Positions 44,016 through 60,306 of a DNA stretch of 64,000 nt are shown one piece after another. The stretch's first letter is position 1, and the number at the start of each line of letters is the position of its first letter. The stretch lies in the NCBI GenBank assembly GCA_965248735.1, contig OZ252146.1, positions 4,050,925 to 4,114,924 of the forward strand. The letters are read 5' to 3'. Under the pieces are notes generated by a model that was not told the DNA's origin, did no database searches, and saw nothing but the letters and a program-made list of their open reading frames with translations. Source of the stretch: Candidatus Aldehydirespirator sp. Lineage in GTDB: Bacteria > Actinomycetota > Acidimicrobiia > Acidimicrobiales > Aldehydirespiratoraceae. The position numbers and the translations under genes were made by a program.

Positions 44016-45899
44016 CTACCAGCCTTGGGCGTCGAGGAGGGCTTTCAGTTTGCGTTTGGCCCTGTGCTCGGTGCGCACCCGCCCCAGCAGCGACTCGAAG
44101 CGGTCCGGCTCGCCCGCGGCACCGGCCAGGCGGCGGATGCGCCCCATCAGGTCGACCGCGGACTGGTACTGCTTGGCCTGCTTGCGGTCGATGATCGCCA
44201 GGGCCGCGCACTCATACACGGCGATCGCCTCCAGCGGGCAGGGCTTCTCCCGCGCCCGGGCGAGGGTCATCCAGACCTGCGCTCGGCAGCCGTAGTCGTG
44301 GGCCGCGTCCCAGGCGGCGTCGACTATGCCCTCGAACAGCAGGATGTCCACCAGCGCCGCCGCGGCCTGCGGCACCGGCGGCGGCAGCGGCCCGAACGCG
44401 GCCCCGAGCGCCTCCGGGGCGGTCTCGGCGCGAGCCGCGGCCGCCACCGCGGCCACATCGTTGCCGTCCACGGCCCCGAGCGCCTCCGGACCAGCTTCGG
44501 CGCGAGGAGCGCCGGCCAGCGCGCCGACGAGCGCCTCCCGGCAGCGCCGTAACCAGTCCTGTGCGCCGTCCTCGTCGTGCAGGCGACGGTACGCGGTCAG
44601 CGACGGCTCCGACACGAACGCCCGCCAGTAGAGCTCCACCGCGGCCTTCTCCTCGCCGCGGCCGCGCAGCTTGGCGGCCAGGAACTCGCGAAGGTCCCCC
44701 ACCTGCCACGGACGATCGTCCCACTTGTTGAGCCCGCGCCGGGCCCAGGCGATCGCCTCGTCGCCGCGGCCGGCGCGGTCAAGAGCCCACACGATCTCCA
44801 GGACGCTGTCGGGGCGCACCCCGCGGCGGCCCTGCACCTCGATGAGCGTGTCAGGGTCGCCGGTCCCGAGCGCCCATCCCACCATCGCCTGCCGCGCCGC
44901 AAACGTGCGGCCCGACCATGCGCCGGTCTCGTGACCGGTCCGCTTCCCGTGCGGCTCGAGACCCGCCCTGAACGCAGCCAGGCCCTCCTCTCCGAGAACA
45001 TCGGCGTAGGCGGCGGCGCAGCGGTGGAAGCCGTCCAGTTCCGAGGTCAACTCCAGTTCCACAAGGCGGGCCGCAAGCTCCACCGGGTCGGGCGAGCCCG
45101 CCTCGCAGGCCCGAAGGTGCAGCTCCGACAGCCGCCCGGAGAAGCCGCTCAGCCAGCCGTCGGAGTCGTCGACGTACTCCATGGACTTCTCGGCGCGGCG
45201 GTGGGCGTGCTCGGCCAGCCGCGCCGCGGCGTCGTGATGGCCGGCGTCGCAGAGATCGTCGAGGGCGTCGATCACATCGTCGATCCCCGCGGCCCAGCCG
45301 GGCGCCTCCCCATAGGTCACGAAGCCGTGGGCCACGTGGCCCTCGGCTGCGAAGGCCCGGTCGATGCGACGGCGCCACCTTGCAAGGTCGGGGTCGGCGC
45401 CGCTGGCGGCCCGGGCCTCGGCCACAAGCCGCTCACGCAGCCGCCAGTCCGACGCGGCCCTCTCCAGCACGATCTCAACCAGCCGCTCCGGCGCGAGGCC
45501 GGCGACGAAGTCGGCCAGCTCGTCGCCAGCCGCGGGCCCGGCGCCCGGACCCCCGGCCACCCCATCCGCCGACCGACCGGACCCGGCGAACGGAACCAAC
45601 ATCGAAGGGTCGTCGTCCGGGCCCAGCGACAAGGCCGCCGCGACGCAGTGCTTGCAGAACGAGCCGTCCTCAGCCGCCGGGCACGTGCAGGACCATCGCG
45701 GCCTGTCCCGGTCGGCCCACAGCTCCACGAAGTAAGGCATCGTGCCCCGCACCGTCGCCTCCAGCCGCCCGTCCCCGACGTCGCCCGACTCCAGCCGCCC
45801 GTCTCGAAGATAGGCGGCCCCGCGCGAGTACGCCGCCGGACCGGCAAGCCGCCCCACCGTCGCCGCGTCGAACACCTCAGCCAACGATTTCACAGCCAC
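44016..45899 (-). CDS. SWIM zinc-finger protein with long helical-repeat C-terminal region
   Basis: SWIM signature RWSCTCPAAEDGSFCKHCVAAAL (CxC..CxH). The start is uncertain: GTG 45899/45893 are preferred over ATG 46019, which lies only 8 nt from the divergent XRE gene start. Confidence 0.7.
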   Translation of the reverse strand: MAVKSLAEVFDAATVGRLAGPAAYSRGAAYLRDGRLESGDVGDGRLEATVRGTMPYFVELWADRDRPRWSCTCPAAEDGSFCKHCVAAALSLGPDDDPSMLVPFAGSGRSADGVAGGPGAGPAAGDELADFVAGLAPERLVEIVLERAASDWRLRERLVAEARAASGADPDLARWRRRIDRAFAAEGHVAHGFVTYGEAPGWAAGIDDVIDALDDLCDAGHHDAAARLAEHAHRRAEKSMEYVDDSDGWLSGFSGRLSELHLRACEAGSPDPVELAARLVELELTSELDGFHRCAAAYADVLGEEGLAAFRAGLEPHGKRTGHETGAWSGRTFAARQAMVGWALGTGDPDTLIEVQGRRGVRPDSVLEIVWALDRAGRGDEAIAWARRGLNKWDDRPWQVGDLREFLAAKLRGRGEEKAAVELYWRAFVSEPSLTAYRRLHDEDGAQDWLRRCREALVGALAGAPRAEAGPEALGAVDGNDVAAVAAAARAETAPEALGAAFGPLPPPVPQAAAALVDILLFEGIVDAAWDAAHDYGCRAQVWMTLARAREKPCPLEAIAVYECAALAIIDRKQAKQYQSAVDLMGRIRRLAGAAGEPDRFESLLGRVRTEHRAKRKLKALLDAQGW

Positions 45900-46012
45900 A
45901 TTCCTACCGGCGGACCAAGCCAGCACCGCACAGCCCTCATCGACAGAACCTCCAGCCGACTGCGGGACGCTGCGGCGACAAGACTTGCGATTTCCACAAG
46001 TTTCGGGAATGC

Positions 46013-46034
46013 TGTCCATCTGTGGACATGTCCA
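46013..46034. promoter_or_regulatory. Overlapping palindromes TGTCCA-TCTG-TGGACA and TGGACATGTCCA (operator candidate)
   Basis: Direct reading. The perfect 12-nt palindrome contains the ATG of the XRE-ImmA gene. A TTGCGA-17 nt-AATGCT promoter-like pair lies just upstream. Confidence 0.45.
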
Positions 46035-47221
46035 TCGGTCGCCAGATCCGGCGACTGCGAGAGGCCGCGGGACTCAAGGCCGCGGACCTCGCAGACGCGC
46101 TGGGGCTGGATGCCAGCGCTGTTTCGAATCTCGAACACGACCGGCGGAACGTCAAGGCCGAGGAGTTGGGGGCAATAGCTGAGTTCTTGGGCGTGTCGCA
46201 GTTGGCGATCCTTGAGCCGGACTCGCTGCTCGGTCGGCTCCCAGTGGCCCACCGCACGAACGGCGACGAGAGCGCTAGCAGGGACTCGCGCCTGCGGCTC
46301 ACAGCCATGGCGGAGTTGCACCAGGTACTCACTGACGGCGGTCATCCCGCTGCTGTCCGTGTCGGTGAACCTCCACGGCCAAATTCGACGTGGCTGCAAC
46401 ACTCGACCGCGCTAGCTGACTGGGCGCTGGAGCGTCTCACCCCAGCCGCTGAGGGGGAGGACCGCCTTGCAACCCTGGCCACGGCGATCGAGGACAGACT
46501 GGGTGTGGATGTCATGGTCGAAAGCCTGGACAGCGTCGCGCCGTTGGGCCTCTCGATCACCGACGCCGAGTTCTCGTTCATCCTGGTGAACGCTGAGCAG
46601 CTGAGATCACGCGCTCTGTTCACCCTGGCCCACGAGCTGGGGCATGTCTTGAACAGCGACGGGGCCACGATCAACATCGACCGGGATCTGCGGGCTCGCA
46701 CCGATGAGGAGCGGCTGGCCAACGCGTTCGCGGCCGCGTTCCTGATGCCCGAGCCGCAGGTCAGAGCAGCCATCGACCGCTATGGCCGCGGAGCGGACTG
46801 CCTGGCGCGCATGCTTCTCCGCTTCGGTGTCAGTCATGAAACTCTCGTCTATCGTCTCCACAACCTGCGAATCATCAACGCCCAGGGGCGGGATCGTCTG
46901 CGGAGGATCAGTTGGGCCAGCCTGATCGAGCACGTCTCTGACGATGAGATCGCTCGAAGCCTGCTCGCTGCGAGAGGGGCTCGGCCAGAGAGACGGCCGC
47001 CCGCGCTGCTGGCGACACGGTGCCTCCACGGTGCCCTGGACGGAACGGTCGGGGCGGGGCCGCTTGCGAGGCTGCTTGACGTGGACGTCGATGACATGAT
47101 CGAGGCGATCAACTCGATCGGGCCGGAAGCGGCAGACGCCATCGACGCCGACTATTCGACCCCCGAGGATCCTCCCGACATAGCGATCCTGAGCTTCGAC
47201 GAGGATCCCGTAGCCGCCTGA
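46028..47221 (+). CDS. XRE-family HTH fused to ImmA/IrrE-type zinc metallopeptidase domain
   Basis: N-terminal HTH IGRQIRRLREAAGLKAADLADALGLDASAVSNLEHDRR. HEXXH motif LAHELGHVL within a COG2856-like region. Confidence 0.8.
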   Translation: MSIGRQIRRLREAAGLKAADLADALGLDASAVSNLEHDRRNVKAEELGAIAEFLGVSQLAILEPDSLLGRLPVAHRTNGDESASRDSRLRLTAMAELHQVLTDGGHPAAVRVGEPPRPNSTWLQHSTALADWALERLTPAAEGEDRLATLATAIEDRLGVDVMVESLDSVAPLGLSITDAEFSFILVNAEQLRSRALFTLAHELGHVLNSDGATINIDRDLRARTDEERLANAFAAAFLMPEPQVRAAIDRYGRGADCLARMLLRFGVSHETLVYRLHNLRIINAQGRDRLRRISWASLIEHVSDDEIARSLLAARGARPERRPPALLATRCLHGALDGTVGAGPLARLLDVDVDDMIEAINSIGPEAADAIDADYSTPEDPPDIAILSFDEDPVAA

Positions 47222-47972: not shown

Positions 47973-48683
47973 TCAACCAGCGGCAACTGCAACGACAGGG
48001 TCATCGATCGTTGACCGATCCACATAGGTCACGAGAATCTGGCGGATTTCGCGTGCTGAGAGGATTGCCTGAGCACCAGGGGAGCCCTCGATGGGCTCGC
48101 CATCGGGCCCAAGAAGTGTTAGAGGCTGGCCGATGACCAGATCGCGGTCTGAGGAGTCTTCAAGATCTGTGTTGTACCAGACGAGCGGTCCTGCCACGTA
48201 GCTTCCGTCGTTCAGGTGACATTCGAGATATACGTAGCTGTCTTTCGGGGCGCCGATGAAGAAGTAGCGGTGCCATACGGACTCGTCGGACAGCGCTGGA
48301 GCGAACCGCTTCAAGAAAGGCTCTATCGGCCAGAGGCGATAGGCGAACGCCACCGCGAGGGCCGACGCTCCAGCGAGGAGCGCGACCGACCATCCTCCGA
48401 CCCATGCGAGCCTGGCGTTGCTTTGGAGCAGATATCCCTCCGCATCGCGCAGGAGATGAACGATGCTCGGAGAGTGGCCGCGTATCCACGGCACCCCCTG
48501 AAGGGCGCCATAGAGGGCCAACATCGAGGTATTGGTGACCATCGCTACGACGAGCAGGTTGGCTCCCTCGATCACCGTGGACACCGGGCGCGTGGGGACC
48601 GTTCGTCGGCGTACCGCGTAGTAGCAGTAGCCGGGGATCAGCACATAGACGGCAACCAGCAGCCCTACCAGCGTGCTAGGCAT
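47973..48683 (-). CDS. Membrane protein of unknown function (N-terminal TM region + soluble C-terminal domain)
   Basis: 236 aa with 3-4 TM helices (LVGLLVAVYVLIPGYCYY, LLVVAMVTNTSMLALYG, WSVALLAGASALAVAFAY). GC is lower than the genome background. Confidence 0.6.
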   Translation of the reverse strand: MPSTLVGLLVAVYVLIPGYCYYAVRRRTVPTRPVSTVIEGANLLVVAMVTNTSMLALYGALQGVPWIRGHSPSIVHLLRDAEGYLLQSNARLAWVGGWSVALLAGASALAVAFAYRLWPIEPFLKRFAPALSDESVWHRYFFIGAPKDSYVYLECHLNDGSYVAGPLVWYNTDLEDSSDRDLVIGQPLTLLGPDGEPIEGSPGAQAILSAREIRQILVTYVDRSTIDDPVVAVAAG

Positions 48684-49495
48684 CGGCTAAGAGCTACCGC
48701 TTGGGCGACTGATCTCCGCCTCTGCTCGGCGGCTGCGGCAGAGTGTCCACGGGAGGCGGCGCCGGGGGAGCGTTCCGGGGCGCCCTCCCGCGCTTCGAGA
48801 GGTTCGGCTCGGCACTGGGGCGAGTCTGCTTCTCGGCCATGCAATAGAACCTACATGATGATGCGCTGAAGAGCAGTGGGACTGCGGCGACCGAAGCCCT
48901 GCGAGACGACGGCATCTGAGGCTTCCGGCCTTGGCTAGCGCTTCCTTCGAGGCTTCGGCAACCTGTTGACCACACGCGGTGGTGGAGGCGGATTCTTCGG
49001 AGCCCTTCCATCCCTTACATGGATATTCCGAGACCTGTTGCCCGTCTGCTCGTCTCCCACACGGGAAGCGTACCGCAGACACGCCGTGGCGCGGTCCACC
49101 GGAGCGCCACTCGATCAGATCCTCGGCGGCGCGCTGGAACCCGGCGTTGTCGCCCCGCTGATGGCTGCGAAGCAGCGCCTTCACCAGACCACTGCGCGCC
49201 ACGCCACGAACCTGCTCGGCAGCAGCGACACCGGGCGACGACCCGTCACAGCGATGCCGTCGGCGGTTCGGTTCTTCGCTGACACCCGAGCAACCGCAGA
49301 GAATCCTGGGCAAGGCACATCTTCCGAGGGTCCTGCCCGGCCCGGAGGGCCATGTCATATGGAGGCGGCAAGCTGCACTACCCTGGCTATGCATCCTCAT
49401 GCGGCCCCGACCCACGCAGGAGACGTGCCCCTAAGGTAACCTTGGCCCATAATGCGATATTTAGTGTCGTTCGCGAGACGAGAAAGGACGATGCG

Positions 49496-50833
49496 GTGGC
49501 CAATCTGGAATCGGTGAGCCTCTTCTCCAACTGTGGGGCGGGCGATGTCGGCTTCGCGCTGGCAGGGTTCCGGTTCAGGGTTCTGGCCGAGATCGATGAG
49601 CGCCGCCTTGATGTAGCGCTTCGCAACCACAGTGACGCCTCCGGCATCGTGGGAGATCTCAGGAAGACTTGGCCCGATGTTGTCGAGTCCTACCGGGAAC
49701 GCTGTGGCTCAACACAACCAGCCCTGGTGTCGGCGTGCCCCCCATGCCAGGGGATGAGTTCGGCGCGGGGCAGCCGAGGCCACGAAAGCGACGCCGACGC
49801 CGGGAGCCGTGACGCTCGGAATCTCCTTGTAGAGGTGATCGCCGATGTCGCCAAGAAGGTAGAGCCACGGATCGTGGTGGTTGAGAACGTGCCTGCGTTC
49901 CTGTCTCGCCTCGTCATCGACCCGGACACACGCGAGCCGATCTCGGCAGCGGCGCTCCTGATTCGTTTGCTCGGAGAGCGCTATCGCGCGTTTCCGTTCC
50001 TGGCAGACCTGGCCGACTACGGGGTCCCCCAGCGCCGGGTCCGCGCCTTCCTCACGTTCATCAAGCGCGACGAGCCCGCGCTCGAACTCTTGGAACGAGC
50101 AGCCTTGGTCCCCTTCCCATGTGCTCCGATCCTCCGATCCTCCGAACCGACGACGCTCCGCGAGGCCCTCGCGGAATTGGGCGCCAAGCCGCTCGACGCG
50201 AAGTCCCCCACGGCCGCGCGGGACGACTCCAACCCCATGCATGCCGTGCCTGTCTGGGGCGACAATCGCCAGTATCGGATGGTTGCGGCGATTCCTCCGG
50301 GTTCCGGTGGCCGGGCATGGCAGAACTCGCAGTGCGAGCGATGCGGGGAGGTCGACGTCGGCTCCGAGGACGCTGTATGCCCCGTCTGTGCGGCACCACT
50401 GTTGCGCCCGGTCGTGCAGGAGGAGGACGGGTCATACAGGCTCGTGAAGGGCTTTAGGAATTCGAGTTACTCGCGCATGTCGCCTGACGCTCCGGCAGCC
50501 ACGATCACCACCGCGAGCGGTCACGTCGGCTCTGACCTGACCATCCACCCCTTCGAGAACCGGCTCTTGAGCCCGTTGGAGTGTGCATACCTCCAGACAT
50601 TCCCAGCGGATTTCGACTGGGGCACAGCGCTCAAGCGCTGGGGTCCCACCTTTGTACGCACGATCATCGGAGAGGCAGTTCCGCCGAGGTTCACGGAACT
50701 CCATGGAAGGGCCTTGAGGCGCCTGCTGGATGGCCAGACTGAGGGACTTGCTCAACAGAACGACAAAGGTGTGTTGAAGGCCGATCGGCGGCTTAGCCGC
50801 CTGCGGAGCAAGCCACTGGAGCTAACCGCGTGA
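49496..50833 (+). CDS. DNA (cytosine-5)-methyltransferase with zinc-ribbon insert
   Basis: Motif I FSNCGAGDVG, IV PPCQGMS, VI VVVENV, VIII QRRVRAF, X GEAVPP. An insert carries CERCGEVDVGSEDAVCPVCAAP. GTG start with GAAAGGA Shine-Dalgarno after an AT-rich promoter-like stretch. Confidence 0.9.
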   Translation: MANLESVSLFSNCGAGDVGFALAGFRFRVLAEIDERRLDVALRNHSDASGIVGDLRKTWPDVVESYRERCGSTQPALVSACPPCQGMSSARGSRGHESDADAGSRDARNLLVEVIADVAKKVEPRIVVVENVPAFLSRLVIDPDTREPISAAALLIRLLGERYRAFPFLADLADYGVPQRRVRAFLTFIKRDEPALELLERAALVPFPCAPILRSSEPTTLREALAELGAKPLDAKSPTAARDDSNPMHAVPVWGDNRQYRMVAAIPPGSGGRAWQNSQCERCGEVDVGSEDAVCPVCAAPLLRPVVQEEDGSYRLVKGFRNSSYSRMSPDAPAATITTASGHVGSDLTIHPFENRLLSPLECAYLQTFPADFDWGTALKRWGPTFVRTIIGEAVPPRFTELHGRALRRLLDGQTEGLAQQNDKGVLKADRRLSRLRSKPLELTA

Positions 50834-52851
50834 CGGATACCGTCCAAGACGACGATCTATACCTACGATTCCTTGGGTCGCTCATCGAAGAGCTAGGGGC
50901 AAAAATGTACCCTAGCGTGACTGCCTCTGTGGCGGAGTTGATTTCTAATGCATGGGATGCGGACGCCAAGAATGTATGGATTACCATGCCTCTCGGCAGA
51001 CGTGTGGAGAGCGACACCGACGAAATCGATGTTCTCGACGACGGCATCGGAATGTCACGGAGCGAAGCTAGAACGAAGTATCTTGTCGTTGGACGCAAGC
51101 GGCGAATCGAAGAGGACGGTTGGAAGTCTCCTGCCGGACGTTCTTTACACGGACGCAAAGGCATAGGAAAACTAGCTGCCTTCGGAACAGCTAAGAATCT
51201 ACAGTGCATAACGTTGAAACAAGGCGGAACACACACAGCGTTCGAGCTAGACTATGACAAGATCCGACGGCTCAAGGGTGGCGAGGATTACAAGGTGCCA
51301 GAACTCGTTGAGTATGCGGTCCCAGTCCGAGCTGATACTGGTCAGCCACTTGCGAACGGGACTCAAGTTCGCCTCTCCAATCTATTAGGCAAGATGATTC
51401 CAAATGAAGATCGGTTCCGCGCTTCTCTAGCCCGTCGGTTTGGTGTCCTTAGTCCTGAGATGAATATATTCCTAAACGGCAGGAATGTAGAACGGTTCGA
51501 TATCCCACTTGACATCAGGTTTCCTCGTGACGGTGTACCGGAGCCTGGAAAGGGCCTACCACCGAGAGACCCCGCGACTGGAGAGCGTACCCCACCCTTG
51601 GTCGTCGATGACGGCTGGACTATCGAGACCCTGCCTGAGGGTGAGGTCCGGTGGTGGATTGGATTCACGGCAACACCAATCGATGTTGCAGAGTTGAGAG
51701 GCATCGCAGTCCTCTCACACCGCAAGATGGTCCAGAGACCCTTCATGTTCGGTAGATCACTGGGAACCTCGGGTCAACTCGGTCAGGAGTATCTCGTCGG
51801 CGAGGTCATAGCGGACTGGATCGACAATAATATTCAGCCCGAAGAGGATCTCGTCGAGACGAACCGCAGCCAACTCCAACTGGAAGATGAACGACTCCAG
51901 GAGTTTCTTCAGTGGGGAAGACGTCGTCTAAGGTGGGCACTTGCATTGCGTTCAGAGCTCAGGAAAGACAGGGTAATCGAGACTGTCCTGCTTGATCCAG
52001 CTGTTGAGAACCGACTTGGGCAGTTTACTTCTCGAGAGCAGACAGCATTCAAGACCATCGGCAAACATCTCGCGAAGATGCCAGAAGCGGACTCGGACGA
52101 TGTAACCGATCTGATGTTGCAAATCATGGACTCCTATGATGACAAGTCCGTTAGGGAGATGATTGAAAGGATCGGTGAAACGGATGAGACAACCCAAGAG
52201 CGCATGTGGGGACTGATCGCAGAGTTCGGTCTGATTGATGCTAGGCGAACAGCTACGAGAGTGCGGGCACGAATGCAGGTCATTGAGAAGCTTGAGGACC
52301 TTGTTGCGAGCGGAGCCCTCGAAGTTCCCGAGATCCACAACCATATCCGAGACAACTTCTGGCTACTCGATCCGCGCTGGGATCTCTATGGTGATGAGGT
52401 CGATTTGACACGGATGCTTCAAGACAAGTATGGATACTCGACTAAAGAACCGGGAAGACAAGTCGATTACCTATTCTCCGTAGCGCCAACAACCCTCACT
52501 TCTGCCGATGAAGTAATAGTGGTAGAAATCAAGCGTGCGCGCAAGGCAGACGGCTCCAAGCACCGGGCCAATTCGAGCGAAGTGATCAAGTTTGCAGGAT
52601 ATGTAGAGGATGCTCTCGCTTACTACTCTCAGTCTAACAGTCCCGCTGATGTTCCATCAGTGAGAGGATTGATGATTGCCACTGGATATACTAACTCAGC
52701 GCAGATGCAGAGACGTGCACTTGAGAATGTTCCTGGTGCCAAGTATCAATTCAAGTCATGGGAGTCCGTGCTCAAGGACACCAAGCGACTGCATCAAGGA
52801 TGGCTTGAGCTATCATCCCGTCGTGGGCAGATGGCTGAGGTAGACACCTAG
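50830..52851 (+). CDS. GHKL (HATPase_c/MORC-like) ATPase fused to a C-terminal PD-(D/E)xK nuclease-like domain
   Basis: Bergerat-fold N box ELISNAWDADA, G1 DDGIGM, G2 GRKGIGKLAAFG. The C-terminus has WLLDPRWDLYG..VDYLFS..VIVVEIKRARK (D...ExK). GTGA overlap with the methyltransferase stop. About 50 % GC. Confidence 0.85.
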   Translation: MTDTVQDDDLYLRFLGSLIEELGAKMYPSVTASVAELISNAWDADAKNVWITMPLGRRVESDTDEIDVLDDGIGMSRSEARTKYLVVGRKRRIEEDGWKSPAGRSLHGRKGIGKLAAFGTAKNLQCITLKQGGTHTAFELDYDKIRRLKGGEDYKVPELVEYAVPVRADTGQPLANGTQVRLSNLLGKMIPNEDRFRASLARRFGVLSPEMNIFLNGRNVERFDIPLDIRFPRDGVPEPGKGLPPRDPATGERTPPLVVDDGWTIETLPEGEVRWWIGFTATPIDVAELRGIAVLSHRKMVQRPFMFGRSLGTSGQLGQEYLVGEVIADWIDNNIQPEEDLVETNRSQLQLEDERLQEFLQWGRRRLRWALALRSELRKDRVIETVLLDPAVENRLGQFTSREQTAFKTIGKHLAKMPEADSDDVTDLMLQIMDSYDDKSVREMIERIGETDETTQERMWGLIAEFGLIDARRTATRVRARMQVIEKLEDLVASGALEVPEIHNHIRDNFWLLDPRWDLYGDEVDLTRMLQDKYGYSTKEPGRQVDYLFSVAPTTLTSADEVIVVEIKRARKADGSKHRANSSEVIKFAGYVEDALAYYSQSNSPADVPSVRGLMIATGYTNSAQMQRRALENVPGAKYQFKSWESVLKDTKRLHQGWLELSSRRGQMAEVDT

Positions 52852-52869
52852 ATCGTCGTGTCACCACGA

Positions 52870-53574
52870 TCATAGTGCTACGAGGCGTACGTCAGCGTGC
52901 AAGTAGTCGCTGAAGATCATGCGCACACGATCACCACCAGAGTCTACCGAGCACGAGAATCTTCCTACCTGTACATCTTCCCATCCCGGTCCATAACTGG
53001 ACTCTTCACCGCCACACACGGAGCGAATGAAGCCGCGGCTCCCGATTTCACCCCAGGCCGATAGACCCGGACGTGAGGATGAAAAGAACACGTCTCTAAT
53101 CTCTGCTGATAGCGGCGCAACATCGCAGTGCACCGTCGCCTCTAGGTCAGCGGTATCCTGTGCAGTATCGAAACGCCACAAACCGCGAGCGATCTTCTCC
53201 AGAACTAGATTCACTCGCTCTAACTCAGGACGTACAGTATATGCGCTGTTATCGACTGTGGCCGCGCGAGCTAATTTCTCCCGGAGTAGAGGCCTATGTT
53301 CCAGCGTCTTGGAGATCTTATGACGCTCCAGTGCCCGTGGATCTGTTGTTCCACAAACCACCACCTCGATGAGGCTCGCTACATATTGCTCGTCGTCCGA
53401 CGAATCCGAATTGCAACCGCGGCAGCTTGGCACAGTGATTAGATCGTCGGGATATGGCTTGTCCAGAAATATCTTGGGCGGTACGTGATCAACAGTGTCG
53501 GGGAATGCACTGCCGCAATGGAAGCATGCGCCGCCGAGACGTGCGTCATGATCCGGGCGATATCGCTTCACCAT
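52870..53574 (-). CDS. HNH-type endonuclease-like protein
   Basis: CFHCGSAFPDTVDHVPPK...VPSCRGCNS gives the Cys/His arrangement of an HNH/zinc-finger nuclease. About 52 % GC, like the neighbouring GHKL gene. Confidence 0.6.
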   Translation of the reverse strand: MVKRYRPDHDARLGGACFHCGSAFPDTVDHVPPKIFLDKPYPDDLITVPSCRGCNSDSSDDEQYVASLIEVVVCGTTDPRALERHKISKTLEHRPLLREKLARAATVDNSAYTVRPELERVNLVLEKIARGLWRFDTAQDTADLEATVHCDVAPLSAEIRDVFFSSSRPGLSAWGEIGSRGFIRSVCGGEESSYGPGWEDVQVGRFSCSVDSGGDRVRMIFSDYLHADVRLVAL

Positions 53575-53665: not shown

Positions 53666-56600
53666 TCACTGCTTGGGGGGTTTGCGGTTGGCGGGGGTGG
53701 GGGTTGGTAGGTCTTTGGCTGGGATCAACGGGCCGTTGACTATCTGGGCTAGGAGGGCGGCGGCTTTGGGGGTGACCTCGACGGTGTGCTCGATGATGGA
53801 CAGGAGGAGCAAGAGTTCGTTGGTCTGGTTCCAGCGGATGGGGCGGATGTCGTCCAGAGGGCTGGACTTCCTGCCCTTTCGTGTCTTCATTCGATAGCCG
53901 AGCCAGGAGCGCACGACTCTGAGGCCGGAGACCTCGAAGTTCCACGCGTCCTCGCTTACAGGGGCGAGGGCACCGGTGCCGACGGTGAGGGTCTCGGACT
54001 CGGAGTTGTAGTCGTAGTCGTTGGGCATGCCTTCTACTGGTCGGACCTCCTTGGCTCTTCCAGCGGGAAGGTGGGACGGGCCCTTGGGGGAGAAGCGCTC
54101 TCCCCAGGTGTGCCACCACAGGAGGTCGCGACCCAGCTCTACCGCCTGCTGGAACAGGTCGGGGTCGGCGGTGATCGGAATGTGGATCGGGCCTGCGGCT
54201 TCGGCCAGTGCTTCGTTGAAGCGGCTGTGGAAGGCGCTCGTCCCGCCCAGGGCGTACGCGTAGGCCAAGAGGTCCTCAGCAGCGGCCTCGATACCGAGCC
54301 CGTCGCTGAGAGCGACCAGCAGGCCGTCTGGGACGTTGGACTCCCCTCCCTTCTGGTCTCGGTAGAGCGGCATGACGTTCTTGGCGCCGAAGGACCCCCG
54401 GAAGTGGTCGAGATCGGGTACGTAGGGCGTCGCAGTGAGCGCTGGCCCTTGCCCGAGCTTGGTGGATGTCAGCGAGGTGAGAAACACCTGGTGAAGGCCG
54501 CGTGCGCCCCAGAGCTCCGGCCTAGGCCGGTCGGCCAAGCGGTTGTCGGCAACCATCCATTGCCGGTCGAAACTCCGGTAGCCGTAACGCTCGAAACCCT
54601 CTGGCTGATCGTCCTGATCAAGCTCCCGAAGCGTCCTCAGTCGAGGACCGGCTCCCAGCAAGCGGCCGGGGGTGCTTGTCGTAGTTCGAAAGCCGGTCTC
54701 CCTGAGCAGCGGTCCTCGGTGGCGAGACACCTCATGCACGAGCGTCCGCCATCGGCGTTCGAGCAAGCCCCTACTCTCGCCGATGGGCCATGTCCGCTTG
54801 AGCTGGCATCCGGAATGAACCCAAGGGAACAGCTCCGTGATCTCGGGCCAGTTGTTGTACTCATTCTCGCTGCGGGGCGTCATGCGATCGAGGCGCTTGC
54901 CGGGCACCTGCTTGGACACTTCGGCGAGGGTGGCCTTTTGCAAGCCGGCCAGCTTCTCCAACCGAGTGCCGGCGATCCTCAGGTAGCGAACCTCGCACTT
55001 CTCCGTGCGTTCTGATCCGGTGCGCACTCCCACTGCTATAGCAACGGGGGTCTGGATGTCGAAGATGTTCTCCTCCTTTAGGGCGCCACGGCCCTCACCT
55101 CCAAGGTCCACGATCCACAGCTCGTCGAAAGCACCCCGCAATAGGTGGCGCACTCCGCCCATGGAAACGCCGTCTAGGTACGAAGAGGCAGTGATGAAGG
55201 CCACGACTCCCGGGCCTTGCGGTAACTCGGTGGCCTGCCAAATGGCCCAGCGCCAGAAGTAGACGTAGTCGTTGTAGACGTTCTTGAGGTGGCCGCCGAG
55301 GCCCGCCTCCTTCATCGGCTTGGTCACCGCGTTGAGCAGTGGGGCCAGGCTCTCGGCTCCGTAGCGGACCACGCCGCCCTTTCGTCTGCCAGCAGTCCCG
55401 GCGGCGCGCTGTTCTCTGTCGTAGGGCGGGTTGCCGATCACTACCGTGAACCGCTCGGACTCCTTCAGCTTGGCCGCCCTTTCGCCCTCATCCGCGACGG
55501 GGTCGCTGATGGTGGCGAACTGGCCTTGGCGGGCCGCGTGCTCCAGCGTGTCGGTGAGGAGGATCTGCATGGCTCCGTCGCCCGCCCCGACATGGTGCAG
55601 TTCTAGGGCGACCTTGAGGTGGGCGATGGCGTAGGGGGCGAGCATCAGCTCGAAGGCGTGCATGGATGGCAGCAGGCGGTCTTGCAAGTGCTCGGGCCAT
55701 TCGCCGGGAGCGCCGGAGACCAGGAACGACTTGCGGGCCCGGCGCAGCCACTCCACCAGGAACGTTCCGGTGCCGGTAGCCGGGTCGACCATCGACACGA
55801 ACGGCTGGTCGGGATCGACGCCCTCGGGCACCTCGAAGCCTTGGCGCTCGGCAACCTCCTGCCAAGGCGCGGCGTCGGCTATGCCCATCGGTAGACCGAA
55901 TCGGGTCCGCAGCACCTCGTCGACGGCGCGCACGATGAACTCGACGGCGGGTTGTGGCGTGTAGAACGCGCCGGCGTCGGCACGCATCTTGCGGTCGTAC
56001 TGCTTGAGGAACTCCTCGTAGAAGTGGATGACGGGGTCGCCACCCTTGATGGTGGAGTCGATCTGGTCGAGGATGGCCTCGACATTGGTCTCGCGCAGGT
56101 CGGCGACGAGCTGGGGCAGGTCGCTGCCGGGCAGATCAAGCGACACAGCCTCGTCGTGGACCTGCTCGAACAGCGCCTCCAGGAACGGGTTGGCCACCGG
56201 CACCGTCGAGAAGATCGGCGACGACCCGAAGTCCTTCGGGTTGGTCACCCGGCTGCTGAGCATCCCGTACACCAGCGTCTGGGCGCACATATCGGCGAAG
56301 CTGTCGGCGTTGACATCGCTCACCAACTGGGTACGGATCTGCTCCATGAGCGCCGAGAACGGTCCCGAGCCGTTCTCAGCCCCCAGCGCCTCGCGTATCT
56401 GGGTGCGCAGGTCGCGGGCGGTTCTGGCCATGCGGTCGGCCAGGCGGGTCGAGTCCCTGATCGTCTGGCCGACCGGCAGCTTGAACGCCTCCCACCAGGC
56501 CTTGCGCCACGACTCGATGTCGCTGTCGTCGGTCGGCCAGGCCAGGCACGGCAGCAGCTCCTCGTTTAGGCGCTGGAGATGGCGCGGCGGAGCATGCGCC

Positions 56601-57082
56601 GGCCGCCACGCCAGCGACCGGAACTCCGCCGTCTGCGGATCGCTGCCCTGGAAGGCCAACAGGTGTATCTCTACGTCGTCACCAGTTCCGGTGATCACCA
56701 CGAACAGCAGGTCTGCGAGTGCCCAGGTCGGCCTGCTCGCCGCGCCGGCGGCGCGCTTCTTGGTTACCAGCCCTCGAAGCAGGCGACGGATCGGCGTGTA
56801 CCGCAGCCTCGGCCCGCTGAATTCCAGAAAGAACACGCCCCAGGGCTGGTTCACGGTCAACGGCCGCATCTGCTGCAGCCGCTTGAAGTCATTGAGCCGA
56901 TCCGCGGGTATGCCCAACTCGGCAGGATCCCAGTCGTAGGTGACGGCAGTGAGATCGTCGTCTTCCAGGTCGGGCAGTTCCAGGGGCCAACCCTGGTCGT
57001 CCACCAGGTACCGGAAGACCTGCGCGAAGGTGCGGATGCCGCGCATCGTCTCGGCGTAGTCCGCGGGGACGCTGGAGGCCAT
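53666..57082 (-). CDS. N6-adenine DNA methyltransferase with type-ISP-like C-terminal target-recognition/coupler domain
   Basis: Motif I VDPATGTGTFLVE, FYTP (motif X-like), motif IV IGNPPYDRE. The long C-terminal region (FDRQWMVADNRL..., NFEVSGLRVVRSWLGYRMK) resembles proteins annotated as type ISP restriction/modification enzymes. ATGA overlap with the helicase gene. Confidence 0.85.
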   Translation of the reverse strand: MASSVPADYAETMRGIRTFAQVFRYLVDDQGWPLELPDLEDDDLTAVTYDWDPAELGIPADRLNDFKRLQQMRPLTVNQPWGVFFLEFSGPRLRYTPIRRLLRGLVTKKRAAGAASRPTWALADLLFVVITGTGDDVEIHLLAFQGSDPQTAEFRSLAWRPAHAPPRHLQRLNEELLPCLAWPTDDSDIESWRKAWWEAFKLPVGQTIRDSTRLADRMARTARDLRTQIREALGAENGSGPFSALMEQIRTQLVSDVNADSFADMCAQTLVYGMLSSRVTNPKDFGSSPIFSTVPVANPFLEALFEQVHDEAVSLDLPGSDLPQLVADLRETNVEAILDQIDSTIKGGDPVIHFYEEFLKQYDRKMRADAGAFYTPQPAVEFIVRAVDEVLRTRFGLPMGIADAAPWQEVAERQGFEVPEGVDPDQPFVSMVDPATGTGTFLVEWLRRARKSFLVSGAPGEWPEHLQDRLLPSMHAFELMLAPYAIAHLKVALELHHVGAGDGAMQILLTDTLEHAARQGQFATISDPVADEGERAAKLKESERFTVVIGNPPYDREQRAAGTAGRRKGGVVRYGAESLAPLLNAVTKPMKEAGLGGHLKNVYNDYVYFWRWAIWQATELPQGPGVVAFITASSYLDGVSMGGVRHLLRGAFDELWIVDLGGEGRGALKEENIFDIQTPVAIAVGVRTGSERTEKCEVRYLRIAGTRLEKLAGLQKATLAEVSKQVPGKRLDRMTPRSENEYNNWPEITELFPWVHSGCQLKRTWPIGESRGLLERRWRTLVHEVSRHRGPLLRETGFRTTTSTPGRLLGAGPRLRTLRELDQDDQPEGFERYGYRSFDRQWMVADNRLADRPRPELWGARGLHQVFLTSLTSTKLGQGPALTATPYVPDLDHFRGSFGAKNVMPLYRDQKGGESNVPDGLLVALSDGLGIEAAAEDLLAYAYALGGTSAFHSRFNEALAEAAGPIHIPITADPDLFQQAVELGRDLLWWHTWGERFSPKGPSHLPAGRAKEVRPVEGMPNDYDYNSESETLTVGTGALAPVSEDAWNFEVSGLRVVRSWLGYRMKTRKGRKSSPLDDIRPIRWNQTNELLLLLSIIEHTVEVTPKAAALLAQIVNGPLIPAKDLPTPTPANRKPPKQ

Positions 57083-60000
57083 CAGTTCAGCTCCATCCAG
57101 CAGCGCAACTGAGGATCCGGCGCGTCCATGGGGGCGTTGACCCGCTTGAGGTACGTGTCGCGCACAAGGCGCAGAACCTTGTCGCGCACCTGCTTGAGGG
57201 TGGCGCGCTCAGTGGTGCAGCGCCGGGGGGTGTTGGGCTTCGAGCGGATGCTCTCGATGATGTCACCGGGCGACTCAACGATTGAGTCCTCGCCCATGTC
57301 GTAGAGGTACCAGCGGGTGGGGCCGGCCTCCAGCGTGAACGCGCCGCTCTGCGCGTCCAATGCGGGAAGCGAGTAGCAGAAGAACACGCCGCGGGCACCC
57401 TTGGCGAGTTTGCGGCGGCCCGAGAACACCGAGCCGGGCAAGGCGTCCAAGCGCTCGGCCAGGTCGGGGTGGCGCTTGAGCAGGGCCTGATACTCCAAGT
57501 GCATCTCCTCGGCGGCGGTCCTGGTCCCCTCGTAGCTGGCGTTGAACTCGCGCAGCGGGTCGTAGGCGTCGTCGGGGCGCAGCAGCTTGCGGCCCTCGAT
57601 GCCGAGAGTATGGGAGATCAGCAGCGTCTTGCCCGCGACCTTTTCATACAGCTCAAGGATCCTCTCGAGCTCGTCGGGAGGCAGGAAGTTCCAGAACCGC
57701 ACAGTGCCGCGCTCTGCCGCCTTCTCGGGGTGGTCGACGGCCAGGCGCTGCTCCACGTCGGGGCTCATGCGACGGTCCACACGACCGATGCGCTGCATGA
57801 GCCGCACCGGGTTCCAGTGAAGGTCGTAGTTGACGAGCCTGGTGGCGTCTTGGAGGTTGAGCCCCTCCGACAGCACGTCGGTGGAGACCAGCACCCGGAT
57901 CTCGTGGAGGCCGTCGGCGGCGAGCTCCGCTGTGCTGCTGGCGTTGTAGTAGGGCGAGAACCGGCGGATCACCTCGGCACGGTCCACCTTGGAGCCGCTA
58001 TCTATGCGGACGAGGCCGTCGACGCCTGCGGCGCGCAGGTGGGACTCCACGTAGCGGGCGGTGTCGGCGAATTCGGTGAACACCAGCACCTTGCGACCAG
58101 CCAGGTCCTTCGTGCGCAGCAGCCGGACCAGCTTGCGCACCTTGTCGTCCTGCTCCGGCGTCAGCCGACTGGCGGCGTCGAGGAAGCGGGCGATCTCGTC
58201 GAGGTCCTCGAACGTCTTGTCGAGTATGGCCGCCACGTCGTAGTCGCTGCGGGACAGCTCGGTCACCGCTTCCAGCAGCTCGGGCGGGATCACGTCCTCG
58301 TCTGCGTCGTCCTCGTCCGCTTCGCCGGTGCCGTCGAGATCGAGGCCGAGCTGGACCTCGGGCCGGAAACCGAGCACGGCCGCGTGTCGACGCGTCCAGG
58401 CGTCGAAACGGTCGCGCTCAGCGCCCGGCTCGCTGTGGACCTCCACGAAGGCCAGCAGCTTGCGCATCAGCCGGTCCAGCGACTTCTCGAAGGCGTACAC
58501 CGAGCTCTCGAAACGCTTGAGGAACATCGTGCGGATCAGGCCCACCACCTGGCGCTGGCGGTTCTCCTCCACGGGATTGATGTCGTCGGGGCCGACGTAG
58601 TAGGCCAGCGGGTAGTAGATCGAGAGCGAGAACAGAGGCTGCTGGCGCCGGAAGGCCTTGTCGAACATGTCGAGCACTTCCCGATACGACGAGCGGATCG
58701 AGTACTCGGCCACCTGTGGCGGCTTGCGCTCGGGGAACGCGGTCGACTCGCCGCGTTGCTGGATCTGGCTGGCCTTCGCATAGGACCGGCTGCGCTGCAC
58801 GACCAGCGCCTTGAACACCTCGTCCGCGGCGAGCGCCTCTTGGGCTTCGGGGGTCATCCCCTCCGCGAAGGCTGAGCCGACGGCGTCGGTTGTCACCCCG
58901 CCGCCACGGGCAAGAGCGCTCTGAAGGACTCGCTCCATCACGTTGAAATGGCCCGAGAGGTTGTTCACGCCGAGGCTGCGGGCGAAGAAGGCCTCGTCGC
59001 CTCGGGTGAACAGCTCGGCCATGTGCCGGAAGTCGGCCAGACGGTTGTTGACCGGGGTGGCGGTGAGCAGGAACATCAGCTTGGGCCGGACCGAGCCGTC
59101 CAGCATGTCGAACAGGCGCCAGTAGCGCGAGCGGCGGTCCTGCCCGTCGTCGCCGGGGCCGGTCCTGCCGCCGAGGCCGCGTCCCCCGTCGGCGGTGTCG
59201 TCGCCTCGGCTGCCGCGGTTGCGGAAATGGTGGGCCTCATCGACGATCACCGCGTCGGCCAGGTCGGTGATGCGCCGGAACCGCTCCGGGAAGTCGTTGC
59301 CTCGCCCGAGGTCGGTGTGGCTGAACACGCTGAGGCTGGAGAAGTCCGCACCCCCACCGACGCCGCCGATGTGGGGCAGCCACCGGCGCAGATGCGGCTC
59401 CCAAACGCCCTCGCGGGCCGCCTTGGGAGCGAACAGCACCACCCGCTTGTTCTCGTGCAGCACGAGCCGCTCGATCAACATAAGCCCCACGAACGTCTTG
59501 CCCAAGCCCACCCCGTCGCACAGGAAGGCCCCGCCGTGCTGGCGGCAGATCTTCATCAGCGACCAGTACGCCTCCTGCTGGTAGCGATCGAGTTGGCCGA
59601 ACATGCGCGACTGCGACTCGTCCCACTCCCCCGCAGTGAGTTCACGGCCCCGGAAGAACTCGTGAAGCGCTCGGGTGTACACGTCGAACGGTGTGAACTC
59701 GGCGGTGTGGCGGGTGATGGCCCGCAGCACATCGGTGGTGACGTCCTCCGCCGCGGCCCAGTGCGTCTCGAACCAGTCCTGGAGTTGGGCGACCTCGCGG
59801 CCGCTCTGCACCTGGATGTTCAACTCGACGTTGCGGGTCAGCCCCGGCTTGGTGAAGTTGCTCGATCCCACCAGCGCCTGCGCTCCCACTACATCGAACT
59901 TGGCGTGGGTGATGTATGCCTTGGCGTGGAACTTGTTCCGCCGGTAAACCCGACACTCGATCCGGCCCTCAGCGATGGCCTCCACCACGGCCTCTACACC

Positions 60001-60306
60001 CTCCAGGAACGGGTTCGGGCCCTTCTCGTGCTCCAGACTGTCATCGAGTCGGCCAACTCGTTGGCGCAGCGCCTCCTTGAAGACCTTGTGTGTTTGCAGC
60101 GACACCTCGTCGCCCATCAACAGGCGGATCTTCTCAAGCTGCTGCCACTTGCCGTCAAGAGCCAGCAGCGCCCCGATCTCGAAGAACCCGGTGGCGATGT
60201 CGAATGATCGGGCCAGGTCGCTCCACTGGCGCAGGTACTCGAGACCCGTCCAGCCCGACACGCTGTTGTCGACGATGAACAGGTCTCCGCCGCCCGCTTC
60301 GCTCAC
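57082..60306 (-). CDS. PLD-family nuclease domain fused to SNF2-family helicase
   Basis: HKD motif FHAKAYITHAKFD..GSSNFT. SNF2 motif I LCDGVGLGKTF and motif II VIVDEAHHFRN. Helicase C LVSTDVLSEGLNLQD and WNPVRLMQRIGRVDR. Confidence 0.9.
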   Translation of the reverse strand: MSEAGGGDLFIVDNSVSGWTGLEYLRQWSDLARSFDIATGFFEIGALLALDGKWQQLEKIRLLMGDEVSLQTHKVFKEALRQRVGRLDDSLEHEKGPNPFLEGVEAVVEAIAEGRIECRVYRRNKFHAKAYITHAKFDVVGAQALVGSSNFTKPGLTRNVELNIQVQSGREVAQLQDWFETHWAAAEDVTTDVLRAITRHTAEFTPFDVYTRALHEFFRGRELTAGEWDESQSRMFGQLDRYQQEAYWSLMKICRQHGGAFLCDGVGLGKTFVGLMLIERLVLHENKRVVLFAPKAAREGVWEPHLRRWLPHIGGVGGGADFSSLSVFSHTDLGRGNDFPERFRRITDLADAVIVDEAHHFRNRGSRGDDTADGGRGLGGRTGPGDDGQDRRSRYWRLFDMLDGSVRPKLMFLLTATPVNNRLADFRHMAELFTRGDEAFFARSLGVNNLSGHFNVMERVLQSALARGGGVTTDAVGSAFAEGMTPEAQEALAADEVFKALVVQRSRSYAKASQIQQRGESTAFPERKPPQVAEYSIRSSYREVLDMFDKAFRRQQPLFSLSIYYPLAYYVGPDDINPVEENRQRQVVGLIRTMFLKRFESSVYAFEKSLDRLMRKLLAFVEVHSEPGAERDRFDAWTRRHAAVLGFRPEVQLGLDLDGTGEADEDDADEDVIPPELLEAVTELSRSDYDVAAILDKTFEDLDEIARFLDAASRLTPEQDDKVRKLVRLLRTKDLAGRKVLVFTEFADTARYVESHLRAAGVDGLVRIDSGSKVDRAEVIRRFSPYYNASSTAELAADGLHEIRVLVSTDVLSEGLNLQDATRLVNYDLHWNPVRLMQRIGRVDRRMSPDVEQRLAVDHPEKAAERGTVRFWNFLPPDELERILELYEKVAGKTLLISHTLGIEGRKLLRPDDAYDPLREFNASYEGTRTAAEEMHLEYQALLKRHPDLAERLDALPGSVFSGRRKLAKGARGVFFCYSLPALDAQSGAFTLEAGPTRWYLYDMGEDSIVESPGDIIESIRSKPNTPRRCTTERATLKQVRDKVLRLVRDTYLKRVNAPMDAPDPQLRCWMELN

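Follow-up and report, generated by a model that had tools for sequence, protein, structure and literature searches.

A C5 cytosine methylase paired with a GHKL ATPase-nuclease in Candidatus Aldehydirespirator: a probable restriction-modification pair related to HgiDII and BbrUII, with an HNH-like gene alongside

The 64,000 nucleotide (nt) stretch of Candidatus Aldehydirespirator sp. DNA analysed here (contig OZ252146.1, positions 4,050,925 to 4,114,924; "the window" below) carries a gene for a C5 cytosine DNA methyltransferase (methylase), a gene for a 673 amino acid (aa) protein in which a GHKL ATPase is joined to a putative nuclease, and a convergent gene for a 234-aa HNH-like protein; the coordinates are collected in Table 1. 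We consider it highly likely that the methylase and the 673-aa protein together make up a Type II-like 5-methylcytosine (m5C) restriction-modification pair of the HgiDII/BbrUII superfamily. A first-pass annotation, made from the sequence alone, had called the system uncharacterised. That label has to be given up: the 673-aa protein is a full-length homologue of HgiDII and BbrUII (below), GHKL restriction enzymes were catalogued in 2008, and the kind of system, an ordinary m5C restriction-modification pair, is already known. The same annotation's idea of a nuclease from which the methylase protects self DNA fared better, as relatives of the nuclease gene are linked to a C5 methylase gene in 29 of 29 suitable loci, and the nuclease gene decays in close relatives that keep the methylase.

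The methylase and the ATPase-nuclease

By its profile match and motifs the methylase is predicted to be a complete C5 enzyme. Its residues 54-449 match positions 3-316 of the 324 positions of the PF00145 profile with 100.5 bits (cut-off 22), it matches the PADLOC MTase_II model with an expectation value (E) of 5.8e-44, and the motifs FxGxG, PCQ, ENV, QxRxR and GxAVP are all visible, their residues being invariant in the alignment. Within the variable region lies a CxxC...CxxC zinc-ribbon insert that is conserved in the four closest relatives only. The earlier description of a complete Dcm-type enzyme with such an insert agrees with what we see. DISARM and Druantia were also considered, prompted by matches of the methylase to the PADLOC models DrmMII and DruM, and were rejected: their core genes were not found, the genes called at the locus including neither DUF1998 nor a DrmA-like one, and the two matches come from generic C5 methylase similarity. 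The GTG start of the methylase at 49496 is consistent with the gene calls of its 444-446-aa homologues. Its stop codon and the GTG start of the nuclease gene share the tetranucleotide GTGA, and a GGAG stands 8 nt upstream of that GTG, an arrangement implying that translation of the two genes would be coupled.

What kind of protein is the 673-aa partner? Its residues 19-664 align with positions 10-647 of the 659 positions of the NCBIfam model NF050001, "BbrUII/HgiDII family restriction enzyme", with an E of 4.2e-75, and two REBASE-derived PADLOC REase_II models match it as well (E 1e-29 and 2.8e-25). The clade to which it belongs is large (more than 1,400 matches among 8,000 candidates scored), and the source names of its members, where given, are "hypothetical protein" or "ATP-binding protein". 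A PDB sequence search with the whole protein found nothing, and the sole Pfam family seen in it is PF13589 (HATPase_c_3), with 69.7 bits against a cut-off of 25. The four GHKL motifs are present (I, ExxxN; II, DxGxG; III, GxxGxG; IV, GT), and in an alignment of 74 clade sequences the ATPase residues E36, N40, D70, G72, G74, G108-G119 and G177 are invariant and T178 is nearly so; K299, Q302 and R303 of the middle domain are invariant too. In Foldseek searches with the AlphaFold2 model of the protein (predicted local distance difference test, pLDDT, 83) Hsp90, TRAP1 and MORC2 were matched with E of 1e-12 to 1e-14 over 380-480 columns; these alignments span the GHKL and middle domains and are uninformative on the C-terminus. 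The N-terminal part had been read earlier as a Bergerat-fold, MORC/HATPase_c-like ATPase, and both the Pfam score and the MORC2 match agree with that reading. Between the middle and C-terminal domains the model has a long helical linker, with helices at residues 354-387, 401-415, 422-434, 439-449 and 453-493.

The C-terminal domain can be placed as follows. Residues E498, D514, R516, E523, D546, E566 and K568 are invariant in the 74-sequence alignment (D546 is encoded at nt 52465-52467 and E566-x-K568 at nt 52525-52533), and the modelled topology is alpha-beta-beta-beta-alpha-beta, with D546 just before the strand 547-553, E566 in the strand 561-567, and then a helix and the fourth strand. With an invariant E...D...ExK and this core topology, the domain is predicted to be a member of the PD-(D/E)xK superfamily. 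On their own, the C-terminal 188 aa match positions 471-647 of NF050001 with an E of 2e-8. When the C-terminal domains of 19 members were taken separately, 12 matched the endonuclease NucS weakly (best E 1.3e-4), and a Pfam scan of all 19 at E up to 10 gave one match only, to NucS_C. A PDB search with the C-terminal profile found nothing, and neither PF14082 (SduA_C/DUF4263) nor the PADLOC SduA model matched the whole protein, or the 19 C-terminal domains at E up to 10.

A connection to the Shedu nucleases is nevertheless found through an intermediate, a GHKL protein named "ATP-binding protein" that is encoded at 349541-351301 of Agrobacterium pusense plasmid pAt1 (locus L091). This protein carries HATPase_c_3 together with Pfam SduA_C (PF14082; 28.2 bits, just above the threshold of 27), and it scores 168 bits on the BbrUII/HgiDII model NF050001; there is no methylase gene adjoining it, and a DEAD/DEAH helicase gene lies next to it. 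Residues 8-629 of the window nuclease align with it at 26% identity (BLASTP, E 9e-36), and hhalign of the nuclease C-terminal profile against its C-terminus gives 84% and E 7.7e-6 in an alignment that pairs the D and ExK positions. The L091 protein thus appears to bridge the restriction-enzyme and Shedu annotations, and through it a Shedu-like assignment of the C-terminal domain seems reasonable; the first-pass suggestion of such a domain stands by way of this intermediate but not by any direct PF14082 or PADLOC match. The Shedu nuclease is itself reported to be structurally closest to EndoMS/NucS (PMC10441436). The proposed fusion of a GHKL ATPase to a PD-ExK nuclease is upheld by the invariant ATPase residues and by E498, D546, E566 and K568, and alignment and model together divide the intact protein into four parts: the GHKL ATPase comes first, then a middle domain like that of Hsp90 and MORC, then the helical linker, and last the predicted PD-(D/E)xK domain of NucS/Shedu-like type.

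Pairing and decay in related loci

The partners of the nuclease were counted in a sample of 80 metagenome loci encoding its relatives, which were scored with purpose-built profiles; the synteny counts rest on the 29 of these loci that have at least 1.5 kb on both flanks of the nuclease gene. A C5 methylase is present in all 29. It lies no more than 400 nt from the nuclease gene in 25 of them, and its open reading frame overlaps that of the nuclease in 15 (15 of the 25 where the two are adjacent). Vsr is present in 20 of the 29. Six homologue loci at 47-82% identity all have a C5 methylase beside the nuclease, in varied orientations and with Vsr in two, and two plasmid homologues of the nuclease show the same pairing. 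The pairing is essentially universal across the family. A nuclease gene that adjoins its cognate methylase gene, in a pairing kept in relatives, is one of the marks of Type II systems, and this is what is found here; the synteny in other genomes that the first-pass annotation had proposed to survey is, for this pair, complete in the well-flanked loci.

The closest relatives are in Acidimicrobiia metagenome-assembled genomes (Candidatus Aldehydirespirator and Candidatus Poriferisodalis). In three close relatives the nuclease gene has been damaged, in three independent ways: by an insertion sequence in L008, by two frameshifts in L009, and by a deletion in L011 that has removed residues 104-585. 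The C5 methylase is intact in L009 and L011, the two in which it can be seen, and the neighbouring Type ISP-like methylase (below) is intact wherever the contig includes it. Such a pattern would be expected of a toxic restriction gene that is held in check by its methylase. The 64-kb window was also scanned for under-represented palindromes, and this gave no recognition site: only generic depletion of CTAG and CGCG was seen, and GTCGAC is not depleted (44 observed and 54 expected).

The HNH-like gene and its surroundings

The nuclease and HNH-like genes differ from everything around them in base composition. Their GC contents and their GC contents at third codon positions (GC3), listed in Table 1 with those of the other genes, place only these two in the low-GC block, with the methylase outside it. 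The "low-GC cassette" of the first-pass annotation is therefore right for the nuclease and HNH-like genes but not for the methylase. The open reading frames, motif strings, GTGA overlap and low-GC block that it listed are all present in the gene calls and translations; the gap of 19 nt that it gave before the HNH-like gene is actually 18 nt. Inside this spacer lies a short inverted repeat, TCGTG...CACGA, and a consensus scan called no terminator there.

The 234-aa protein is very probably an HNH-type nuclease, judging from its conserved residues and its predicted structure. In the family alignment C20, H30, C51, C54 and N55 are invariant and C17 is nearly so; they fall in a zinc-finger beta-beta-alpha-Me core at residues 14-60 (nt 53395-53535), for which the AlphaFold2 model (pLDDT 86) has strands at 27-30 and 47-50 followed by a helix at 52-57. 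Pfam HNH_5 is below threshold in the window protein (15.8 bits, with 27.5 needed) and is found sub-threshold in 14 of 41 family members (best E 6e-4), and there is a weak alignment to the HNH protein of PDB entry 4h9d over the core residues. The earlier HNH-like call is thus supported by the CxxC...H...CxxCN core in spite of the low HNH_5 score. A Foldseek search of PDB and BFVD with the model gave no significant match, and the C-terminal two thirds of the protein have no recognisable fold and matched nothing in either database. The family is a common one without a Pfam model (553 representative clusters at E of 1e-30 or lower and 5,221 at E of 0.001 or lower), and nearly all its members are stand-alone proteins of about 230 aa. 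The single long member, P0286 (796 aa), was set aside as a fusion, since its sequence reads as an apparent gene-call read-through into histidyl-tRNA synthetase-like sequence.

Where do such HNH-like genes occur? In a sample of 80 loci from species-representative genomes, neighbours were recorded up to 6 kb away: a C5 methylase was found in 32 loci, Vsr in 23, a GHKL nuclease in 9, and none of these three in 43. By chance alone, a methylase within 6 kb would be expected well under 1% of the time, a rough figure that assumes about one C5 methylase gene per genome. Vsr is the commonest immediate neighbour and is often no more than about 50 nt away; the neighbours are otherwise varied. L024, L071, L078, L082, L045 and L070, among other loci, exemplify this and the block and mobile-element contexts described next. 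Some loci, such as L024, have a bare succession of Vsr, HNH-like and C5 methylase genes, and a recurrent context is a block in which a C5 methylase gene is accompanied by genes for an unknown protein (420-500 aa), an SNF2 helicase and Vsr. Mobile elements that bear ArdC, relaxase or integrase genes harbour HNH-like genes as well, and some loci look DISARM-like from a reading of neighbour sequences and one SNF2 Pfam match rather than from a systematic domain scan. In distant lineages they stand directly beside GHKL nuclease genes (L012, L033 at 2 nt, L043 at 32 nt, L053 and L076), and in L012 and L043 the neighbour is a true BbrUII/HgiDII equivalog, with 768 and 737 bits, respectively.

To which of its neighbours, then, does the HNH-like gene of the window belong? 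It could be a functional part of the Type ISP-like operon (helicase, methylase, HNH), with which it is co-oriented. It follows the ISP-like methylase gene on the same strand at a distance of 91 nt, with no terminator-like site called between them, and the order of ISP-like methylase and then HNH-like gene is kept in L002, L007, L009 and L011. We think this unlikely: the GC3 of the HNH-like gene is far from the 0.84-0.90 of the ISP-like genes, a homologue at 49% identity has a true BbrUII/HgiDII enzyme (768 bits) together with a C5 methylase as neighbours where there is no ISP operon, and the families most often found next to 78 other HNH-like genes include neither N6_Mtase nor Type_ISP_C, so that the tie to a Type ISP-like operon is seen only in the close clade of the window. 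The first-pass annotation had likewise placed the HNH-like gene with the nuclease rather than with the co-oriented operon, and the shared GC3 of 0.54 and the distant loci that lack an ISP operon agree with it on this point.

A different possibility is that all three genes form one obligate system in which the HNH-like protein is a required second nuclease (for a second strand, for example) and a single methylase protects against both. The shared GC3, unlike that of all the neighbours, and the adjacency of nuclease and HNH-like genes in every close relative favour it, as do the distant loci just listed in which an HNH-like gene stands beside a GHKL nuclease gene and the HNH genes noted in paraMORC1 operons by Iyer et al. 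2008 (PMC2292703). It is nonetheless very unlikely, since the HNH-like gene was found in none of the 29 well-flanked nuclease loci and in none of the 80 metagenome loci overall, a GHKL gene is within 6 kb in only 9 of the 80 HNH-like loci, the HNH-like gene is intact in L008, L009 and L011 where the nuclease gene is broken, and the two genes are convergent here and so are not one operon. The three-gene set that the first-pass annotation had treated as a unit is therefore not a fixed one. Because it is missing from those 29 loci, survives beside broken nuclease genes, and has no methylase, Vsr or GHKL gene near it in 43 of 80 loci, the HNH-like gene is most likely a separate portable module, dispensable for the methylase-nuclease pair, which would have arrived together with the nuclease gene.

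The surroundings of this cassette look like a defence island (SWIM/DUF6880, HTH-Peptidase_M78, DUF6338 and split Type ISP-like genes; Table 1). The Type ISP-like operon is separate from the C5 methylase cassette. Its two genes overlap by their start and stop codons at 57082; the whole system accompanies the C5 methylase block in L007 and L011, and its methylase gene is also there in L002 and L009, in the latter with a shorter helicase. It resembles the Type ISP enzymes LlaGI and LlaBIII in having an N6 methylase with a Type_ISP_C specificity domain beside a nuclease-bearing superfamily 2 (SF2) helicase, and is unlike them in being divided between two proteins and in having a PLD nuclease with an SNF2 helicase. 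On the other side, the SWIM/DUF6880 and HTH-Peptidase_M78 genes (44016-47221) may be another defence or regulatory pair, and about 800 nt of apparently non-coding DNA separate the DUF6338 gene from the methylase start. No Vsr gene was found in the window. Upstream of the cassette, collinearity breaks down between the window and a metagenome contig (L001) that encodes an identical 673-aa protein: from the SWIM gene to the methylase gene the offset of their coordinates shifts by some 300 nt, which points to insertions or deletions between near-identical assemblies.

Table 1. Genes, predicted domains and sites in and around the methylase-nuclease locus, in window coordinates. MTase, methyltransferase; HTH, helix-turn-helix; ORF, open reading frame.
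Feature	Position	Strand	Basis or remark	GC (%)	GC3
C5 cytosine DNA MTase	49496..50833	+	alternative ATG further upstream at 49352	64.6	0.76
GTGA overlap, methylase stop and nuclease GTG start	50830..50833	+	read from sequence
673-aa GHKL ATPase-nuclease (predicted)	50830..52851	+	ORF call	52.6	0.54
Residues 1-185, GHKL (Bergerat-fold) ATPase domain	50830..51384	+	PF13589, invariant motifs, Foldseek
Residues ~186-350, middle (transducer, S5-like) domain	51385..51879	+	Foldseek, invariant residues
Residues ~351-494, long helical linker	51880..52311	+	AlphaFold2 helices
Residues 495-673, putative PD-(D/E)xK domain, NucS/Shedu-like type	52312..52851	+
Spacer between convergent stop codons, 18 nt	52852..52869	.	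read from sequence
234-aa HNH-like protein	52870..53574	-	ORF call; convergent with nuclease gene	55.0	0.54
Two-gene split Type ISP-like system	53666..60306	-	Pfam, PADLOC
N6-MTase with Type_ISP_C domain	53666-57082	-	Type_ISP_C E 2.5e-64; PADLOC REase_MTase_IIG E 5e-222		0.84
PLD-SNF2 helicase	57082-60306	-	PLDc_2, SNF2, Helicase_C; PADLOC HKD+Snf2 E 5.5e-53		0.90
SWIM/DUF6880 protein	44016-46019	-	PADLOC candidate PDC-S62, E 4e-26
HTH + Peptidase_M78 protein	46028-47221	+	divergent from SWIM/DUF6880 gene
DUF6338 protein	47973-48683	-	PF19865 E 2.7e-27; immediately upstream of cassette
Whole window				68.4

Relation to known systems, mechanism and significance

How closely is the pair related to the characterised enzymes? 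R.HgiDII and R.BbrUII share with the window nuclease an end-to-end homology that includes the C-terminal domain, and an N-terminal GHKL domain (PMC2441816), and they too adjoin a C5 methylase, often with Vsr. R.HgiDII was listed as a GHKL-containing Type II enzyme with its C-terminal domain unassigned by Orlowski and Bujnicki 2008 (PMC2441816); both M.HgiDII, which recognises GTCGAC, and M.BbrUII are m5C methylases (PMC5867850). The window pair differs in that its methylase belongs to another lineage, with the zinc-ribbon insert, and in that an HNH-like gene lies alongside.

Several observations weigh against a simple assignment of the pair to this family. The window nuclease scores 253.6 bits on NF050001, and because this is below the equivalog cut-off of 550 the 673-aa protein would be placed in a sister clade of the characterised BbrUII/HgiDII enzymes and not in the family itself. 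All 74 clade members match the model and none reaches 550 bits (best E 2e-79); true members were found elsewhere, namely the two equivalogs of L012 and L043 described above. A literature search found no tested enzyme of the clade and nothing on an ATP need of HgiDII-type enzymes, and for the latter reason the classical Type II label may be imprecise. The partner methylases of nucleases that are 60-68% identical to that of the window (L003, L004 and L010) are only 26-28% identical to the window methylase, and the GC3 of the methylase is 0.76 compared with 0.54 for the nuclease; it seems that the two genes have been re-assorted, and matched restriction-modification partners do not usually show this. 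The low identity and the GC3 difference suggest one history for the nuclease and HNH-like genes and another for the methylase, and the window methylase looks like a non-orthologous replacement. Finally, because HNH-like genes recur beside GHKL nuclease genes, including true equivalogs, a functional partnership of the two nucleases may exist in some systems.

The second group of relatives comprises the GHKL-Shedu proteins. Shedu proteins with GHKL N-terminal domains were listed by Gu et al. (PMC10441436), and the GHKL-Shedu protein VcSduA of Vibrio cholerae defends against phages, its ATPase mutant E27A and its nuclease mutant K557A each abolishing defence (Adams et al. 2025, PMC12137116). The paraMORC3 proteins were described as GHKL, S5 and restriction endonuclease-fold domains with an E-D-ExK signature, and with Dcm, Vsr or HNH neighbours, by Iyer, Abhiman and Aravind 2008 (PMC2292703). 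VcSduA, Shedu type 1D and paraMORC3 all have, like the window nuclease, a GHKL domain, an Hsp90/MORC-like middle and an EndoMS/NucS-like PD-(D/E)xK domain, and the E-48-D-20-ExK spacing of the window nuclease resembles E204-D249-E264xK266 of B. cereus Shedu (PMC10441436). The direct searches found no SduA match in the window nuclease (above), and these relatives are stand-alone single-gene systems (PMC12137116; L091), whereas the window nuclease is linked to a methylase. It might still be supposed that the window nuclease is an infection-sensing, methylation-blind nuclease like VcSduA and that the methylase is an independent neighbour, as its GHKL-Shedu architecture, its 26% full-length identity to a protein that passes the SduA_C threshold and the frequent occurrence of Shedu genes inside restriction-modification loci (PMC10441436) would allow, but this is highly improbable given that a methylase accompanies the nuclease in every well-flanked locus, usually adjacent and often overlapping it, that Vsr, which repairs 5-methylcytosine deamination damage, is with the pair in 20 of the 29, that the nuclease decays while the methylase persists, that the closest named family is one of restriction enzymes, and that the SduA_C-bearing L091 protein, by contrast, has no neighbouring methylase.

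A third likeness is to the MORC/paraMORC operons, in which cytosine methylases (Dcm), Vsr, HNH nucleases and SNF2 helicases were noted, from computation only (PMC2292703); the same Dcm-type methylase, Vsr, HNH and SNF2 genes are found around the nuclease family or the HNH-like family described here.

If the methylase and the 673-aa protein are indeed a restriction-modification pair, they might work as follows: the methylase would mark a specific cytosine-containing site on host DNA, the nuclease would dimerise through its ATP-binding domains into a clamp with DNA held by the middle domain and the helical linker, and the clamped nuclease would cut DNA at sites without the methyl mark. ATP binding or hydrolysis would gate the nuclease, as VcSduA and other GHKL proteins suggest by analogy. 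The HNH-like protein would act on its own as a nuclease that cytosine methylation probably restrains as well, and may be a second methylation-gated nuclease of the locus.

We also put forward, as a tentative and rather doubtful proposal, a reading with two strands: the HNH-like proteins would be an unrecognised, portable family of m5C-gated nucleases, which would act with a C5 methylase and Vsr alone or beside SNF2 helicases or GHKL nucleases, and the HgiDII-type enzymes would be a methylase-tethered lineage of Shedu. If this were true, one methylase in the cassette would license two unrelated nucleases.

For the families concerned the consequences are these. A large clade whose members now carry only the label "ATP-binding protein" or "hypothetical protein" becomes readable as the restriction subunit of m5C systems. 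The C-terminal domain of HgiDII, which was unassigned in 2008 (PMC2441816), has invariant PD-(D/E)xK residues in this clade and can be connected to the Shedu/NucS core. The HNH-like family, common as it is and strongly enriched near C5 methylase and Vsr genes, is a reasonable target for defence-gene screens. GHKL nucleases coupled to a methylase and those that stand alone would then be one machine put to two uses, and the second strand of the proposal above, if true, would tie an immune nuclease described only recently to a textbook family of restriction-modification enzymes.

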